The position numbers and the translations under genes are program-made. Below the pieces are notes generated by a model that saw only the letters and a list, made by a program, of their open reading frames with translations, made no database searches and had not been told where the DNA came from. Below are positions 3,785 to 59,575 of a DNA stretch of 64,000 nucleotides, one piece after another; within the stretch, counting starts at the first letter, position 1; each line of letters starts with the position of its first letter. This DNA comes from an uncultured Candidatus Saccharibacteria bacterium. Lineage in GTDB: Bacteria > Patescibacteriota > Minisyncoccia > Phycocordibacterales > UBA918. The stretch lies in NCBI GenBank assembly GCA_964350645.1, contig CAYGJY010000002.1, positions 161,538-225,537 on the forward strand. Reading direction: 5' to 3'.

Positions 3785-4537
3785 ATGAAACCCCAGATTT
3801 TAGCCATTCAATTTCGAGAAAACGTTGACTCTATTGCTGGTGAGCAAAAGAGTATTGTTCGCGAAATTGGCGAGCACGCTGAAGTAACTTTTATCAGCGC
3901 CTTAAATGAAGCCTTGGCGTGGACAGATCCATACGCAATCCTGCAGCACTACCACGGTGTGATCCTCGGTGGTTCTGGTGAGTTTGATTTTGATGGCAAC
4001 CGTAGCGAAGACGATCGCGCCAAGCAGATGTCGCAGGTGTTTTTGGAACGACTACGACCACTCTTTACGTATATCTTTGAGCAGGATATCCCAACCTTAG
4101 GTATTTGCTATGGACACCAGCTTCTAGGTGCGTTTGCCGGCGCGCAGGTGAGTTACGATGTATCACAGAAAAAGACTAGTTCGCATGAACTAAAGCTGAT
4201 GGTAGATAAAAATGATTACTTTCTTTTTTCCGACTTACCGGATTCTTTTGCTGCACATTATGGACATAAAGATGCGCTGCAGCAGATTCCAGAGGGGGCA
4301 GTGCTTCTGATGAACGGCGGCGAGCAGTGCAAGGTGTCAGCCTTAAAGTATAAAAATAATATCTACACAACCCAGTTTCATCCAGAGCTAAACTTTGCCG
4401 ATATGGTGGACCGGATGAAAAACTCACCGGGCTACTTACCAGAGGGGGTGCTGGCACATGAGATTTTTAAAGATGAACCGCACTCCAACACAATCTTACG
4501 GAATTTTGGGAAGTTTGTAGCGCTGCAAGCGAAATAG
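3785..4537 (+). CDS. Class I glutamine amidotransferase-like protein
   Basis: Nucleophile elbow GICYGHQLL and a downstream QFHPEL His/Glu pair, typical of the GATase1 fold. Confidence 0.7.
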   Translation: MKPQILAIQFRENVDSIAGEQKSIVREIGEHAEVTFISALNEALAWTDPYAILQHYHGVILGGSGEFDFDGNRSEDDRAKQMSQVFLERLRPLFTYIFEQDIPTLGICYGHQLLGAFAGAQVSYDVSQKKTSSHELKLMVDKNDYFLFSDLPDSFAAHYGHKDALQQIPEGAVLLMNGGEQCKVSALKYKNNIYTTQFHPELNFADMVDRMKNSPGYLPEGVLAHEIFKDEPHSNTILRNFGKFVALQAK

Positions 4538-4540
4538 TAA

Positions 4541-4567
4541 CGCCCCCGGCCGTGTAGGTCGGGGGCG
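4541..4567. terminator. GC hairpin between convergent genes
   Basis: Stem cgcccccg...cgggggcg; weak T-run. Confidence 0.4.
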
Positions 4568-4597
4568 TGGTTCGCGAAGGTGCATGGCGCTTCCAGC

Positions 4598-5374
4598 TCA
4601 TTCAAAGTAGAGCTGGTCGCCGGTCTTGATCCCGAGCTTCTCAGCGGCACTTTTACCGTTGAGCACGATCTCGAGAAACTCGTTGCCGAATGGGCCCGAG
4701 CTGCCCGTCACGAGGCCCAGTTTGCCGATAGGCACGTCCGAGAGGCGACGGTAGCGAGGAATTTCTTGATTGCTCACCACCAGTGTCTCGCCTTGAAAGG
4801 ACTGGTCGGTCAGAGTGGTTTTGCAATTGCCGAAGGCATCGACGAAGTAGATGAACTCACCCTGCAACGGACTGATCAGTTCTGGCGTGCTCTTGATCTT
4901 GCTGTGCTCCCAAAGGTAGGCGACCAGGAACGGTAGAACGTGCAGGCTTCGAAACTGTGTCCGGATCGCTCGATGTTGTCGCTCTTCGTTGTCAGGGAAG
5001 AGGGTTGCTGCAATCGCCGGGATGTCGATAACATTCACTGTGTCGCCAAAACCCAAACGGGGAAGCAGTGTCAGTCCAGGGCAGTCGACTGTGCTGACAA
5101 TCAGTGTGCCTTCGTGCTCTAGGTAGCCGAACGGAGAACCGTTGGAGCGTTTTGGAGCGTCTGCATCACCTCTTGGAGCAGCGTTACCAATCACAATCCC
5201 TGGTTCTCCCTCGAGCAAAGCGATGTGAGTGGCTATCGCGCCAGCAGCGGTGAGTTTGTGACTTATCCCCAAAAAGCCAGTTAAGGGAATGCCTGCTCGA
5301 ACGTAGTTGGTGTTCTGGCGAGAACGAGCGTCGCCGTCGCGACAGTCGGTGATAAGGGTTACTGGATGCTTCAT
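4598..5374 (-). CDS. SAM hydroxide adenosyltransferase family (DUF62, SAM hydrolase/halogenase-like)
   Basis: N-terminus MKHPVTLITDCRDGDA and overall ~258-aa architecture resemble DUF62 proteins; the start was moved to the internal ATG, which has an upstream gagagg. Confidence 0.55.
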   Translation of the reverse strand: MKHPVTLITDCRDGDARSRQNTNYVRAGIPLTGFLGISHKLTAAGAIATHIALLEGEPGIVIGNAAPRGDADAPKRSNGSPFGYLEHEGTLIVSTVDCPGLTLLPRLGFGDTVNVIDIPAIAATLFPDNEERQHRAIRTQFRSLHVLPFLVAYLWEHSKIKSTPELISPLQGEFIYFVDAFGNCKTTLTDQSFQGETLVVSNQEIPRYRRLSDVPIGKLGLVTGSSGPFGNEFLEIVLNGKSAAEKLGIKTGDQLYFE

Positions 5375-54600: not shown

Positions 54601-54826
54601 GTTTCTCGATCTAGCTTGCAAAAATCAGCCGGTTTGCTAAGATTGCCCCACCGCACCGGCATCTGGCTGGGTCGGAGTATACATATTGTTTGCTCTTTCA
54701 CACTCACGTGTACTAAGAGATAGCGTAACTGTTCTCGTGACGCTTTCCCTCAGTGCTCGTGCATGGCTTTTCATATGAAAAGCAGCCGTGTGCGGATTAT
54801 TAATTAACTAAATTTTATTTAGTATT

Positions 54827-56394: not shown

Positions 56395-56405
56395 GTGTTG
56401 CTATA

Positions 56406-56442
56406 ACAAAAGGCCGGCCCCGTAGGGGCCGGCCTTTTGTGT
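56406..56442. terminator. 37-nt palindromic terminator, identical in sequence to the one at 62166-62202
   Basis: acaaaaggccggcccc gta ggggccggccttttgtgt. Confidence 0.7.
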
Positions 56443-56460
56443 GGTTACTTCACCAGCAAT

Positions 56461-56853
56461 TTACCCAGCGATAAAGACATCTGAGTAGAGAGTAGTGCCA
56501 TCGAATTCGCAGGTAACCAACTTCCACATGTTGTTGGTATTGTATGCAATTGATTCACAAAGTGTACGAGCCTCGGCTTCTGATGCAACTTCGTTTTGAA
56601 GAGTAGTGCCGCCTTCAATCGTGATAGTTACAGTTTTGAGAGCAATCATTTCTTCGCTAGTTTCAAACTGAATACCAGCTACTTCACCAGCTGGACTCAT
56701 ACTTTGTTTGGCAGCATCAAGATTGAGCTGTAAAACTGCTAGGTCAGCTTTGGCTGCGTGTAACTCAGCGAGCAAGTGCTCAACAGTAGACGCCTGGGCT
56801 AACGGAGCTACTAAAAAAGTAGCTAGGGCAAAGATTGAGAAGATAAATTTCAT
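56461..56853 (-). CDS. Small secreted protein
   Basis: Signal peptide MKFIFSIFALATFLVAPLAQA. Confidence 0.45.
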   Translation of the reverse strand: MKFIFSIFALATFLVAPLAQASTVEHLLAELHAAKADLAVLQLNLDAAKQSMSPAGEVAGIQFETSEEMIALKTVTITIEGGTTLQNEVASEAEARTLCESIAYNTNNMWKLVTCEFDGTTLYSDVFIAG

Positions 56854-57332
56854 ACTTTATGTATTAAGATTGAATAGATATTGAAACTAAACTGTAATAA
56901 GTATACTGATTAATTAACTTTTGTCAAGTATTAGCGACTCAAAAAGTAAAGAAAAAACTCGTCACCTGAGGGCTACGAGTTTTTTCTTTACCTCCAACGT
57001 ACAGGTGCCTGTGGACACAAGTGCGTTAGTTTATGTGTGATGGGAAATGCAGTAGCACATTCCCGTGCACTACTGCCTAGTCTAAACAGCGGCTGGCTGC
57101 CTAAACAGATGTGGATCGTGTAGAGCACATCCTACTTACTATGACGCACCAGGTAGCAAAATCTTTCAGAAGTAGTGGCAGCTAGCGCACCCTAGTCAAA
57201 ACTGACTACCTCACTCCCGCACTGCCCCAGCCAAGCCGACCCATTACGAGATCGCTCGCCCGCTAGCTTTGGACAGAGGGGTTTCAAAACTTCTCGTTAT
57301 TATAGTAAGGCAGTCTCAACAACCTAATATTT

Positions 57333-57350
57333 ACTATCATATATGATAGT
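57333..57350. promoter_or_regulatory. Operator-like perfect palindrome ACTATCATATATGATAGT (copy 1), 15 nt after the yerC-like stop
   Basis: 18-bp perfect dyad. Confidence 0.5.
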
Positions 57351-57364
57351 GAGATTACATTGGA

Positions 57365-57781
57365 TTATTTTGATCCGGGAAAGAGTAAGAAGTGCAATGG
57401 ATATTTTTTCTTTAACGCTGCTAGTCCAAATGGATTAGCTTTGATATCTCGCTGGTTTTGTCTCTTTTGTAATTCAGACTCAAGTCCTTTGATGGCGTCC
57501 CGATATCCTGGCATTTGTTTCCGTAGCCATTTCTCGACCTTAACAATTGTATTGGGTCCAACTTCTAACTGTTCACCAATGTCTGCATGAGTATGACCAG
57601 AGAGCAATAGCCTCGCAATCCATATGCGCCTTCCCAGCATGATTCGCTCACTTGGAGTTAAGAGTTCTTTTAAAAATGCTTTAGTAGCATCTCTGCCTTT
57701 CACTGCTCCGGCTGCAGTATAAAGCATATCAAGAGTCTCCATTTGTTGCTGGTTAGTCAGCTGATCTAATTTTTTCTTCAT
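57365..57781 (-). CDS. TrpR-related YerC/YecD-family DNA-binding protein
   Basis: LTPSERIMLGRRIWIARLLLSGHTHADIGEQLEVGPNTIVKV, a Trp_repressor-like HTH. Confidence 0.7.
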   Translation of the reverse strand: MKKKLDQLTNQQQMETLDMLYTAAGAVKGRDATKAFLKELLTPSERIMLGRRIWIARLLLSGHTHADIGEQLEVGPNTIVKVEKWLRKQMPGYRDAIKGLESELQKRQNQRDIKANPFGLAALKKKYPLHFLLFPGSK

Positions 57782-57789
57782 ATATAAAT

Positions 57790-57807
57790 ACTATCATATA
57801 TAATAGT
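57790..57807. promoter_or_regulatory. Operator copy 2 (ACTATCATATATAATAGT, one mismatch), 9 bp upstream of the regulator start codon
   Basis: 17 of 18 identity to copy 1; overlaps the likely promoter. Confidence 0.5.
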
Positions 57808-57856
57808 AAGTTCGTAAGTTACTTTGTGCCATGAAGTGAAAAAATAAAGATTTTTC

Positions 57857-57874
57857 ACTATCATATATGATAGT
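57857..57874. promoter_or_regulatory. Operator copy 3 (perfect ACTATCATATATGATAGT)
   Basis: Perfect dyad about 76 bp upstream of the regulator start. Confidence 0.5.
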
Positions 57875-57906
57875 GAAATAGAGGATGTTGGAATGTTCAA
57901 ATTTAC

Positions 57907-57955
57907 AAATGAAAACACCCCACCGCAATGAGTTATCCCTCCTTTCTTCCGCGCT
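57907..57955. repeat. 49-bp direct repeat, copy A
   Basis: aaatgaaaacaccccaccgcaatgagttatccctcctttcttccgcgct. Confidence 0.6.
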
Positions 57956-57967
57956 CACGATGTACAC

Positions 57968-58978
57968 CTAATCTTGATGAGTAAGTCTTTCAGCTAACGT
58001 AGGTATTTTACTGAAATCAAATTCAGGATTATGTGTCTGTATATAGTCAATAGTGGCGTCAAGTGTTTCTATCATTATTTCTTCGGCTAATGGCTCCCGT
58101 TCTGCTTCCGGTGCTGCATACAGACCCTTAATTTTTTCATTGATGGCTGGTAGGTGTACGCTATTCAGTTCTACTGCACCAGAATCTGTTAATACATCGT
58201 AGTATGTTTGCAGCCTTTCGCTTGCCGACAGATCTTTGTGTGAGTGATATAGACTGCCAAGGAGTAGAAAAGGCGCTAGCTGATAGTAAGTGTTAAGTCC
58301 ATTGCTAATAAAGGCTGCTCGGAAATTCTGCTGCGTCTCTAGATCGGGACTGAATAAGTGCAGTCCGTTACTGGCTGTGAACACTTCTGATGGGATATCT
58401 TTTTTTGCAACAGCGCACAGTAATAACAGATTCGCAACCGCTGAGGTGGTGTGTTCTTGGTCGCCACAGACACCGTGCATAGCTTCGTGGCAAATTAATT
58501 GGAGAAACTCGATCGCTGGGATATCGCCTCGCATCAAAAGTAGGTTCGCCCCCTCAGCGTCAGCTGACTCGTGCATGAATCTACCTAGGAGTGATTTTGG
58601 ATTATCTAATGGCCCAAAGGTCTGCACTGAAGTTTCTTTATCAAACACTACCATAGCAGTAGTTGTGGACATGCCGTCAAATGCTTCTGGAATAGCTTCC
58701 TGGAGTCCATTTTTTCCAGAAACTTGTGAAAAGGCCCATTGTAAAAAATTGACAAATTCTCGCTGCTCTCTTTCTGTCAGGTCTGCCACTATTGTTTCGG
58801 TGTCTTCGAGAAGTGTAAGTAGTTCAGTGGCATCCCAGTCGCCCTCAATTGTTTCAAATTGATGTGCTATGTAGCCAGCTGACTCCTGTGCTTTCAATAT
58901 TTCAGGCAAAGCTGCAGTCCCACCAAGTGCAACGGCACTAGTGATAAATTCCCTTCTGTTTAGTAGTGGTTTTTCCAT
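57968..58978 (-). CDS. Tat-signal protein with an HExxH motif (putative secreted zinc-dependent hydrolase)
   Basis: N-terminus MEKPLLNRREFITSAVALGGTAALP (RRxFI twin-arginine-like); LICHEAMHGVCGDQEH. Confidence 0.5.
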   Translation of the reverse strand: MEKPLLNRREFITSAVALGGTAALPEILKAQESAGYIAHQFETIEGDWDATELLTLLEDTETIVADLTEREQREFVNFLQWAFSQVSGKNGLQEAIPEAFDGMSTTTAMVVFDKETSVQTFGPLDNPKSLLGRFMHESADAEGANLLLMRGDIPAIEFLQLICHEAMHGVCGDQEHTTSAVANLLLLCAVAKKDIPSEVFTASNGLHLFSPDLETQQNFRAAFISNGLNTYYQLAPFLLLGSLYHSHKDLSASERLQTYYDVLTDSGAVELNSVHLPAINEKIKGLYAAPEAEREPLAEEIMIETLDATIDYIQTHNPEFDFSKIPTLAERLTHQD

Positions 58979-59008
58979 ATAACATCAATAATATCGTATC
59001 GATCATAA

Positions 59009-59057
59009 AAATGAAAACACCCCACCGCAATGAGTTATTCCTCCTTTCTTCCGCGCT
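59009..59057. repeat. 49-bp direct repeat, copy B (48 of 49 identical); here it is extended into a complete hairpin
   Basis: aaatgaaaacaccccaccgcaatgagttattcctcctttcttccgcgct, followed by gtgcggtgggggtgttttc. Confidence 0.6.
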
Positions 59058-59074
59058 GTGCGGTGGGGGTGTTT

Positions 59075-59347
59075 TCATTTGGTGGGGATATTTGTGTTCC
59101 TGCTGAGTATCAGCCAGGCGGCGTTACTGCCGCCAATTGGGCATTCTAGTACTCCGATACATCCCAGTTCTTCAGCTGAGACAAGCATTTCAGCTTGCGT
59201 GCCACGTTTAAGTTTTTGATGTTCTCCGTTTTTAAGCAGTGCAAAGAATGCGTTGACGAAGTTGAAAGTTTCTTTATTCAATTCCGTGTGCAGCCTGCAC
59301 CCAAGTTCTGCAAGGATGAGCATGACTGTATTGTGCGGTATCTCCAT
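59075..59347 (-). CDS. Hypothetical small protein (90 aa)
   Basis: ORF in the same orientation as the three other insert genes. Confidence 0.3.
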   Translation of the reverse strand: MEIPHNTVMLILAELGCRLHTELNKETFNFVNAFFALLKNGEHQKLKRGTQAEMLVSAEELGCIGVLECPIGGSNAAWLILSRNTNIPTK

Positions 59348-59475
59348 CGGAGCCTCCTATTTTGCATGTGAACCATAAACCCTTGCAAAGCGCAACAAAA
59401 TCCGTATACTACCGGGAGCTTACTAAAGACCTATGTTCGGTGATGGCTCGCTTGCGAGCTTGAGAACCAATGGGC

Positions 59476-59533
59476 AGAAATCGCGCCGTTTTGCGTGCGA
59501 GCATTCTGCTCGCGTCAAAACGGCGCGATTTCT
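59476..59533. promoter_or_regulatory. Very stable nested hairpin upstream of rplC (18-bp outer stem plus 7-bp inner stem) with no T-tract; candidate leader or regulatory RNA structure
   Basis: agaaatcgcgccgttttg cgtgcgagcattctgctcgcgt caaaacggcgcgatttct. Confidence 0.4.
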
Positions 59534-59575
59534 CATTTGAGGTCTAATAAGCAAATTATTAGATAAGGTTACAGA

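Follow-up and report, generated by a model that had tools for sequence, protein, structure and literature searches.

The window, the 64-kb stretch of contig CAYGJY010000002.1 analysed here, is a ribosomal-protein region with fusA, tuf, rpsJ, rplC, rplD and rplW from a bacterium of the candidate phyla radiation (CPR/Patescibacteria). Between rpsJ and rplC lies a 3.2-kb island on the minus strand (window 56395–59575), which parts the one gene from the other and thus interrupts the S10 ribosomal-protein operon, and within this island a gene for a 138-aa helix-turn-helix (HTH) protein of the TrpR superfamily, hereafter the regulator gene, is surrounded by three copies of an 18-bp palindrome, ACTATCATATATGATAGT (Table 1). 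The relationship between this palindrome and the protein encoded between its copies, in the window and in related genomes, is the subject of this report.

A search allowing up to three mismatches found exactly three matches to the 18-mer in the 64 kb, all of them around the regulator gene, and neither a further copy nor a second TrpR-like gene was found in the window; the chance expectation was 0.04 matches (shuffle mean), and none of 100 shuffles reached three. The first-pass annotation had described three copies round the gene and these are indeed present, those at 57333–57350 and 57857–57874 perfect and that at 57790–57807 with one mismatch. It had also placed the middle copy just before the ATG, which is correct, although the gap to the ATG at 57781 is 8 bases and not the 9 bp given. 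The dyad symmetry is unbroken through the centre of the 18-mer, which fits a site for a dimer. Copy 3 forms 11 pairs on the minus strand, is followed by the T-rich tail AATCTTTATT, was picked up by the terminator scan and stands 3′ of the upstream gene for a 336-aa protein; a T-run is absent next to the palindrome of copy 1.

Pfam assigns residues 16–99 of the 138-aa protein to the Trp_repressor family (PF01371; 46.3 bits against a cutoff of 27, E=4.5e-12), and this was the only match in a scan of Pfam and NCBIfam, which returned no HUH, transposase, recombinase or nuclease family. The label YerC/TrpR that had been attached to the protein has to be given up in so far as it implies orthology with YerC/HisR or with TrpR, for the protein stays under both NCBIfam cutoffs (TrpR equivalog TIGR01321, 23.3 bits against 67.25; YerC/YecD TIGR02531, 25.3 bits against 42.2). 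When a profile was compared with the PDB, the best match was 3frw (E=5e-9), found along with 3g1c, also of HisR type, and followed by E. coli TrpR (1tro and 1co0, E~4e-3). An AlphaFold2 model built from 24 sequences is all-helical, with 8 helices and a pLDDT (predicted local distance difference test score) of 74; its top Foldseek matches are 3frw, 1tro and 3g1c, with probabilities of 0.96–0.99 and E-values that are weak, as they would be for a single chain out of an intertwined dimer, and the predicted fold is TrpR-like. Homologues number 990 at 90% clustering; at 50% clustering there are 837 representatives, mostly full-length proteins of 135–155 aa. The top 120 homologues are 60–86% identical over their whole length. 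They come from metagenome-assembled genomes (MAGs) labelled Saccharibacteria, Kaiserbacteria, Nomurabacteria, Paceibacteria and Parcubacteria, and carry in a C-terminal extension an invariant K-YP-HFL-F motif that is missing from TrpR and HisR. Across the same genomes the regulator diverges at about the rate of GyrB (81–83% identity).

Copy 2 overlaps a predicted promoter, in that the right arm of the palindrome plus two bases make up a predicted extended −10 element. When the upstream regions of 38 homologous genes were aligned on the start codon, the dyad centre was typically followed by TATGATAGTAT, six bases and the ATG; TGnTAnnnT with a leader of 0–3 nt was present in 24 of the 38, and a Shine–Dalgarno-like core in one (1/38). 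From the position of the extended −10 element relative to the ATG we infer that the mRNA of the regulator is leaderless, starting at or within 3 nt of the AUG, so that the right arm of the operator would be the −10 region. Since copy 2 overlaps the predicted promoter, bound protein would exclude RNA polymerase, and binding at this copy should repress the regulator gene in the manner of classic negative autoregulation.

Table 1. Features at and around the regulator gene (window coordinates)
Feature	Position	Strand	Remarks
Conventional bidirectional intrinsic terminator without palindrome apex	56946–56991		17-nt perfect arms, A and T runs at flanks
ORF-free region, GC-richer, moderately structured	56992–57300	minus	z=−2.66 on minus strand, −0.93 on plus strand
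Copy 1, putative downstream operator or 3′ hairpin	57333–57350		14 nt past stop codon; 457 bp from copy 2
Gene for 138-aa TrpR-superfamily HTH protein, CPR-specific clade	57365–57781	minus	C-terminal tail NPF..ALKKKYPLHFLLFP conserved
Predicted extended −10 element TGATAGTAT	57788–57796	minus	TG at −15/−14, TAGTAT at −12 to −7 from A of ATG
Copy 2, putative proximal operator ACTATCATATATAATAGT	57790–57807		One mismatch; centre 17.5 nt 5′ of ATG
Copy 3, 26-nt perfect palindrome TTTCACTATCATATATGATAGTGAAA with 18-mer as core	57853–57878		Centre 84.5 nt 5′ of ATG; 67 bp from copy 2

Conservation of the bracket and co-variation of site and protein

The arrangement seen in the window recurs at 38 distinct homologous CPR genes, where a palindrome with the core CATATATG stands about 17–18 nt before the ATG and again 5–55 nt past the stop codon. 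This bracket was present in 22 genome loci fetched by protein similarity, at almost every gene, and in about 18 metagenome loci, and it is the same in loci obtained by exact protein look-up and in the gene-containing loci of the metagenome scan described below (individual loci are given as L numbers). The distance from the proximal centre to the ATG is 17–18 nt in 23 of 36 genes. A third copy, 70–180 nt upstream, is present in many loci, distal upstream hairpin copies occurring in L002, L004, L014, L019 and L020, and the downstream copies have often grown to perfect palindromes of 26–62 nt. Gene and palindromes are found together in varied contexts, namely between rpsJ and rplC (the window), after rplB (L095), by 5S/23S rRNA genes (L026–L032) and between dnaG and rpoC (L002), and the downstream copy is kept irrespective of what follows, be it 5S rRNA, a convergent rpoC or an mnmA operon, across a spacer of usually 20–170 nt. 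The outer flanks of the bracket in the window are weakly complementary (83% over 36 nt, palindrome included). A general model in which the gene is a cassette inserted into a hairpin, leaving solo footprints elsewhere, was rejected, as the flanking palindromes of other loci have their own self-contained lower stems. In L086 (640–1330), four palindromes 136–147 bp apart run across an ORF-free stretch 3′ of a 143-aa homologue, forming an array in place of a single copy.

The arms of the palindrome vary by lineage (ACTATC.., TGTATC.., CTTATC.., GCTATC.., ATTTCC.., CTACC.. and others) and are uniform among the copies of one locus. In the MAG CAYHYY, three paralogues (L009, L012, L015) each have a palindrome that differs from those of the other two. 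A distant paralogue in L011, 38% identical over the HTH, is flanked by a palindrome of its own, ACTATACGATATATCGTATAGT, and still more distant paralogues in L051 and L076 are bracketed by the canonical 18-mer. Co-variation of protein and site was assessed in 34 gene/operator pairs by setting half-site distances against distances in residues 73–86 (turn and recognition helix) and in the rest of the protein. Half-site distance correlated with recognition-helix distance (Spearman 0.35) and not with that of the rest of the protein (−0.03), and the partial Mantel r was 0.37 with a permutation p=0.0005. More specifically, Pro-Asn-Thr helices pair with GATAGT arms, Ser/Arg-x-Thr helices with Trp/Tyr-Arg-Val pair with GATACA arms and x-Ala-Thr..Tyr-Arg-Val helices pair with G(A/G)AAAT arms. 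This co-variation, along with the perfect dyad, favours a model in which the adjacent protein, as a dimer, recognizes the palindrome directly and in duplex form.

Multi-site autoregulation of the regulator, as had been suggested from the window alone, is thus supported comparatively by the bracket at 38 genes, by the 17–18-nt geometry over the extended −10 element and by the co-variation of arm and helix. As judged from these sequences, it is very probable that the encoded TrpR-family dimer has the 18-bp palindrome as its operator, and probable that the regulator gene is autoregulated through several sites.

Solitary copies and terminator-like hairpins

A metagenome scan for the exact 18-mer gave at least 120 loci. 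Among the matches listed, to which all statements on solitary sites in this section refer, about 20 loci have a homologue or distant paralogue bracketed by two to five sites and about 100 have a solitary site with no such gene. As a rule the 18-mer of a solitary site caps a longer perfect palindrome, the lower stem of which is particular to the locus, and many sites are flanked by A and T runs (e.g. caaaaccc-18mer-gggttttg and aaagaaaac-18mer-gttttcttt), both runs being present at 29 of 106 sites. An extra palindromic stem of at least 4, 7 and 10 bp was found at 68%, 50% and 35%, respectively, of 100 testable solitary sites, the corresponding values for random positions in the same loci being 4.7%, 0.18% and 0.02%. 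The sites are placed mostly where genes have their 3′ ends: twenty lie between convergent genes against 2 between divergent genes (p=1e-4), and 40 lie between tandem genes. Variants with two mismatches are mostly symmetric (9 of 14), which we read as a sign that palindromy itself is under selection.

The genes that flank the sites are unrelated housekeeping genes (gyrB, pgk, HIT, aminoacyl-tRNA synthetases, NYN, MFS, HhH-GPD, tRNAs), and a coherent metabolic regulon was rejected for this reason; neither trp nor his genes were present among the flanking genes of the loci listed. The gyrB beside one solitary site is of the Paceibacteria/Parcubacteria type, which indicates that the contigs with solitary sites are CPR. 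Solitary sites as leaderless promoter-operators of the copy 2 type were also rejected, there being no peak of start codons at 17–18 nt. Approximately 350 kb of sequence had been chosen without regard to the palindrome, namely the window, four gyrB loci of 22 kb each and the flanks of loci selected by protein; only two solitary sites occur in it, and contigs of 74–189 kb have one exact site each. This suggests a handful of solitary sites per genome of 0.5–1 Mb, about one per 100–200 kb, in agreement with the scan, where solitary loci outnumber gene-linked loci 5:1. The site 3′ of gyrB is kept in five related contigs as the most conserved stretch of an otherwise diverged spacer, and in L157 only the centre of this site, the would-be loop, is altered (CAGTTATG); in three genomes with GyrB 81–82% identical an ordinary terminator takes its place. 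This comparison indicates that sites persist within genera and turn over beyond them.

The first-pass annotation had named a generic repeat as the finding that would speak against an operator. The 18-mer is in fact dispersed away from the gene, in low copy number and on terminator-like hairpins, and this does not argue against binding; copies without the gene do imply that the palindrome is more than a private autoregulatory operator. Other functions of dispersed sites were considered and rejected. The density is far too low for a DNA-uptake sequence, which, like a parS-like role, would leave the locus-specific lower stems unexplained; as for a Xer/dif-like site, dif sites have conserved ATAA/TTAT features that are lacking in the arms, and the outer 11-bp arms are not conserved.

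Two further placements were observed. In L039, L047, L125, L146 and L152, all ascertained by exact 18-mer match, the 18-mer lies in frame (LSYMIV) inside a gene for a reverse transcriptase (RT) of the diversity-generating retroelement (DGR) type (LGNLTSQ motif), just past the YADD motif; between RT lineages the 7-bp lower stem differs at two pairs, in a compensatory manner (GAAAT/ATTTC versus AAAAC/GTTTT), which implies that the hairpin is maintained even within coding sequence. In L063 (4704–4916 and 6723–6906) and L092, two tRNA genes each have a palindrome of the family approximately 95–125 nt downstream, one exact and one a GCTATC..GATAGC variant, in flanks that are conserved across several metagenome contigs.

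Recognition by a protein would be superfluous if the palindromes were ordinary terminator or mRNA-stabilizing stem–loops and the regulator gene merely lay between two of them. The lower-stem extensions, the A/T-run flanks and the placement at 3′ ends are all compatible with this, as are the L157 variant, in which just the would-be loop is altered, and the compensatory lower-stem changes within RT ORFs. However, a hairpin requires neither a palindromic loop nor an identical stem at every site and across CPR classes, and copy 2 and its counterparts lie inside the predicted promoter at a fixed distance from the ATG, where a leaderless mRNA would leave them untranscribed. Moreover, where a proximal copy has a single mismatch, this is not always one that could wobble-pair on the sense strand (T-G in the window, C-A in L038), and the arms vary in step with the recognition helix of the protein encoded beside them. 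We therefore consider it very unlikely that the palindromes act through RNA structure alone.

It also seems unlikely, with more to be said on its side, that gene and palindrome form a selfish or mobile pair, in which the protein maintains or spreads its own palindrome in tolerant places and autoregulation is incidental. The anatomy is that of repetitive extragenic palindromes and their associated tyrosine transposases (REP/RAYT), in which a gene stands between palindromes of its own class, solitary copies are scattered over 3′ ends and several pairings of paralogue and palindrome share a genome, as in CAYHYY, which also has a solitary copy of one paralogue's class on another contig. Such a pair would be congruent with solitary positions that are not conserved between genera, with the differing genomic contexts of gene and palindromes, with a 144-nt palindrome-adjacent element that is duplicated and inverted in one MAG (see below) and with the 18-mer in frame within DGR-type RT genes. 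Set against this, the protein consists only of an HTH domain and a short tail and matches no catalytic family (Pfam, NCBIfam), and solitary sites number about one per 100–200 kb and not hundreds. Only the 18–22-bp apex is common to the sites, and the lower stems are locus-specific and self-complementary, which implies selection on each hairpin. The conservation of the regulator, finally, is close to that of GyrB, which is what vertical inheritance as a core gene would lead one to expect.

The surroundings of the regulator gene

Downstream of copy 1 lies an ORF-free region of approximately 300 nt with a GC content of 49–52%, against 31–44% in its flanks, which ends at the conventional terminator. 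It could be a lineage-specific non-coding RNA or a long 3′ untranslated region of the regulator; Rfam (gathering threshold and E≤5) and ARAGORN found no known RNA in 56880–57330, and blastn found no homologue of the region across the 158 collected loci. The first-pass annotation had noted a minus-strand TATAAT at 57299–57304, which is present, and had concluded that copy 1 controls the ORF-free region. As a general feature this is not supported, because homologous loci keep the downstream copy without such a region; the copy is present whatever follows and so is not there to control it. A conserved non-coding RNA 3′ of the regulator was rejected as well, since the gene-free stretch in L026–L032 is the 5S/23S rRNA operon and most loci leave too little space for an RNA gene.

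Structured segments do occur beside palindromes elsewhere. In L095 a 258-nt ORF-free segment (3796–4053) lies between two exact palindromes directly 3′ of the regulator gene and has long GC-rich hairpins, with z~−7 on both strands and no match in Rfam. In L015 a structured element of 144 nt (4463–4606) adjoins the downstream palindrome of one of the CAYHYY paralogues; it recurs inverted and 91% identical on another contig, L012 (1373–1514, same MAG), where it stands between convergent genes and next to a solitary palindrome of that class.

A more specific proposal, compatible with autorepression through copy 2, is that copy 1 is the operator of a minus-strand promoter at the TATAAT that drives a non-coding RNA of 56992–57300. 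We regard this as doubtful. The TATAAT is there, the region out-folds its shuffles on the minus strand only and has a strong terminator at its end, and the segments of L095 and L015/L012 show that structured ORF-free sequence can stand beside regulator-linked palindromes. Copy 1 would, however, sit at about −58 to −41, upstream of a poor −35 element, which is not a repressing position, and the TATAAT site was not called by the promoter scan. With 20–170 nt to the next gene, most homologous loci have no room for an RNA gene and yet keep the downstream copy, and neither Rfam nor the 158 loci yielded a relative of the region.

The island further contains a 130-aa secreted protein, a 450-nt ORF-free stretch, the 336-aa protein, which has a Tat-like signal (RREF) and an HExxH motif (HEAMH), and a 90-aa ORF. 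The gene for the 336-aa protein is flanked by a 96%-identical direct repeat of 52 nt (57904–57955 and 59006–59057), the upstream copy of which is half of a 73-nt hairpin (59009–59081) with AAGGAGG in its loop; the downstream copy is without the second hairpin arm. In L095 and L048, of a distant lineage whose regulator is 50% identical, the regulator island lies after rplB and rpsJ is again not upstream of rplC. The region 5′ of rplC in the window (59397–59565) is 72–77% identical to the rplC-upstream sequences of these two loci, the RplC proteins being approximately 62% identical, and contains an 18-nt perfect inverted repeat (59476–59533); it may be a conserved ribosomal-protein leader, and Rfam gave no match to it. 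The spacer between fusA and tuf contains an 18-nt perfect palindrome (54766–54783), GCTTTTCATATGAAAAGC, which resembles the TTTTCATATATGAAAA class of a paralogue elsewhere with a centre 2 bp shorter and whose cognate gene is not in the window.

Proposed mechanism and comparison with known systems

On balance, we think it probable that the TrpR-family dimer, whose gene stands between the copies, has the dyad for its operator, an autorepressor operator that doubles as the apex of terminator or boundary hairpins. The working hypothesis that we infer from the sequence anatomy, its conservation and the co-variation extends from binding and repression to a leaderless start, looping and roadblocks. 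Copy 2 would be part of the gene's own promoter, where the bound dimer would keep RNA polymerase off and thereby repress the gene that encodes it. Copies 3 and 1 would present the same site at both ends of the transcription unit, copy 3 as a stem–loop ending the upstream 336-aa gene and copy 1 as a hairpin just past the stop codon of the regulator. They would probably act as auxiliary operators, by cooperative binding or by looping over 67 and 457 bp, and may also shield the autoregulated gene from read-through, as roadblocks or as terminators reinforced by the protein, although the protein may simply tolerate the hairpin context. A gene that is autoregulated, leaderless and monocistronic would have a functional use for such shielding from the transcription of its neighbours. 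Read-through from the regulator gene would be stopped by the conventional terminator downstream. Beyond its own gene, the operator would recur a few times per CPR genome at the 3′ ends of genes, each time capping a terminator hairpin that is otherwise ordinary and peculiar to its locus, and the protein would be a boundary-binding factor rather than a pathway regulator.

Several observations weigh against this interpretation. Copies 3 and 2 are 67 bp apart, a distance that does not correspond to whole turns of the helix. In L002 and L075 the downstream palindrome has a separate, conventional terminator behind it and is therefore not needed for termination there. The solitary sites were picked by exact match, which inflates their apparent conservation, and they have no conserved target set, which, like the ordinary terminators found in place of the gyrB site, fits turnover or selfish spread as well as function. 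Furthermore, a matching regulator and solitary sites in one genome are shown only for L030/L050 and for L012 with L015.

More tentatively, the marking of transcription-unit ends may be the main function of the CPR TrpR-like proteins, exerted through a dyad in the terminator apex; the resulting terminators or insulators would be reinforced by protein and might be tunable. Every paralogue would be matched to a palindrome class of its own and regulate itself from a leaderless promoter built on the same dyad. A related possibility is a self-propagating palindrome–gene pair without a transposase. In the literature on YerC/TrpR in Patescibacteria and on CPR promoters and terminators, we found no description of such a system. 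A TrpR-family autorepressor with a multi-site operator is a known kind of regulator; an operator routinely built into terminator hairpins across the CPR is, as far as the literature searched shows, undescribed.

To our knowledge almost nothing is known of transcription control in CPR bacteria, which make up a large share of bacterial diversity and have very few regulators. A radiation-wide regulator/operator pair that can be read straight from sequence is of interest for that reason, and no natural case so far would be as systematic in having a single DNA sequence act as promoter element, operator and terminator stem, an idea put forward only recently from one E. coli example. If the protein is indeed a boundary factor, bacteria with minimal genomes would have a protein-assisted way of terminating or insulating transcription; if the pair is selfish, it would represent a new type of palindrome–gene symbiosis. 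In practical terms, the paired classes of operator and protein offer orthogonal parts, ready for use in the Saccharibacteria, which have recently become tractable.

The best-known member of the superfamily is E. coli TrpR, which binds as a dimer to 18–20-bp dyads at the trpEDCBA, aroH and trpR operators and represses itself at an operator overlapping its own promoter. The window protein shares the fold superfamily and Pfam family PF01371 with TrpR; it differs in some 40 extra C-terminal residues with the invariant YPLHFLLF tail, in an unrelated operator sequence and in having sites that bracket the gene and lie in terminators. HisR (YerC of B. subtilis), another TrpR-family regulator, has a 20-bp palindromic operator of lineage-specific consensus, with a site 5′ of hisR in about half of the genomes; it is shorter than 100 aa, recognizes the motif cacTTTAnnnnnnTAAAgtg and controls his genes and transporters (PMC9413887). 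Here too a TrpR-family regulator has a lineage-specific palindromic operator, and the closest solved structures, 3frw and 3g1c, come from the HisR group, whereas the window operator is nnTATCATATATGATAnn, not cacTTTAnnnnnnTAAAgtg, and the sites flank housekeeping genes without a common pathway.

The use of a terminator palindrome as an operator has a counterpart in E. coli, where the palindrome of the yobI terminator is a LexA operator and bound LexA blocks the ruvA promoter and lowers read-through (Fletcher et al., 2026, bioRxiv 10.64898/2026.08.19.745784). In the CPR, too, the palindrome of a terminator stem–loop would be the operator of a repressor. The yobI case is a single E. coli example of a promoter-coupled terminator, whereas in the CPR this would be a regular habit of one regulator family throughout the radiation, with the operator always at the apex, with sites often between convergent genes that have no promoter and with the regulator's own gene bracketed. 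The CPR system thus looks like a systematic version of the LexA/yobI case.

In REP/RAYT systems the gene for TnpA-REP is flanked by its own class of palindrome, copies of which are dispersed at gene 3′ ends, and a genome may hold several such classes. The window family resembles them in having a gene flanked by its own palindrome class that is also dispersed between genes; it differs in that the protein is without the HUH/Y1 transposase domain, the copies are a handful and not hundreds, and only the apex is conserved. The lac repressor, lastly, loops DNA between operators at −82 (O3), +11 (O1) and +412 (O2), and the palindrome centres in the window, at −84.5, −17.5 and +439.5, likewise comprise a main promoter operator with auxiliaries some 70–90 bp upstream and 400–450 bp downstream. 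The auxiliary sites of the window differ in being as strong as the main site or stronger and in forming hairpins, so that looping of the lac type is offered here as an analogy only.

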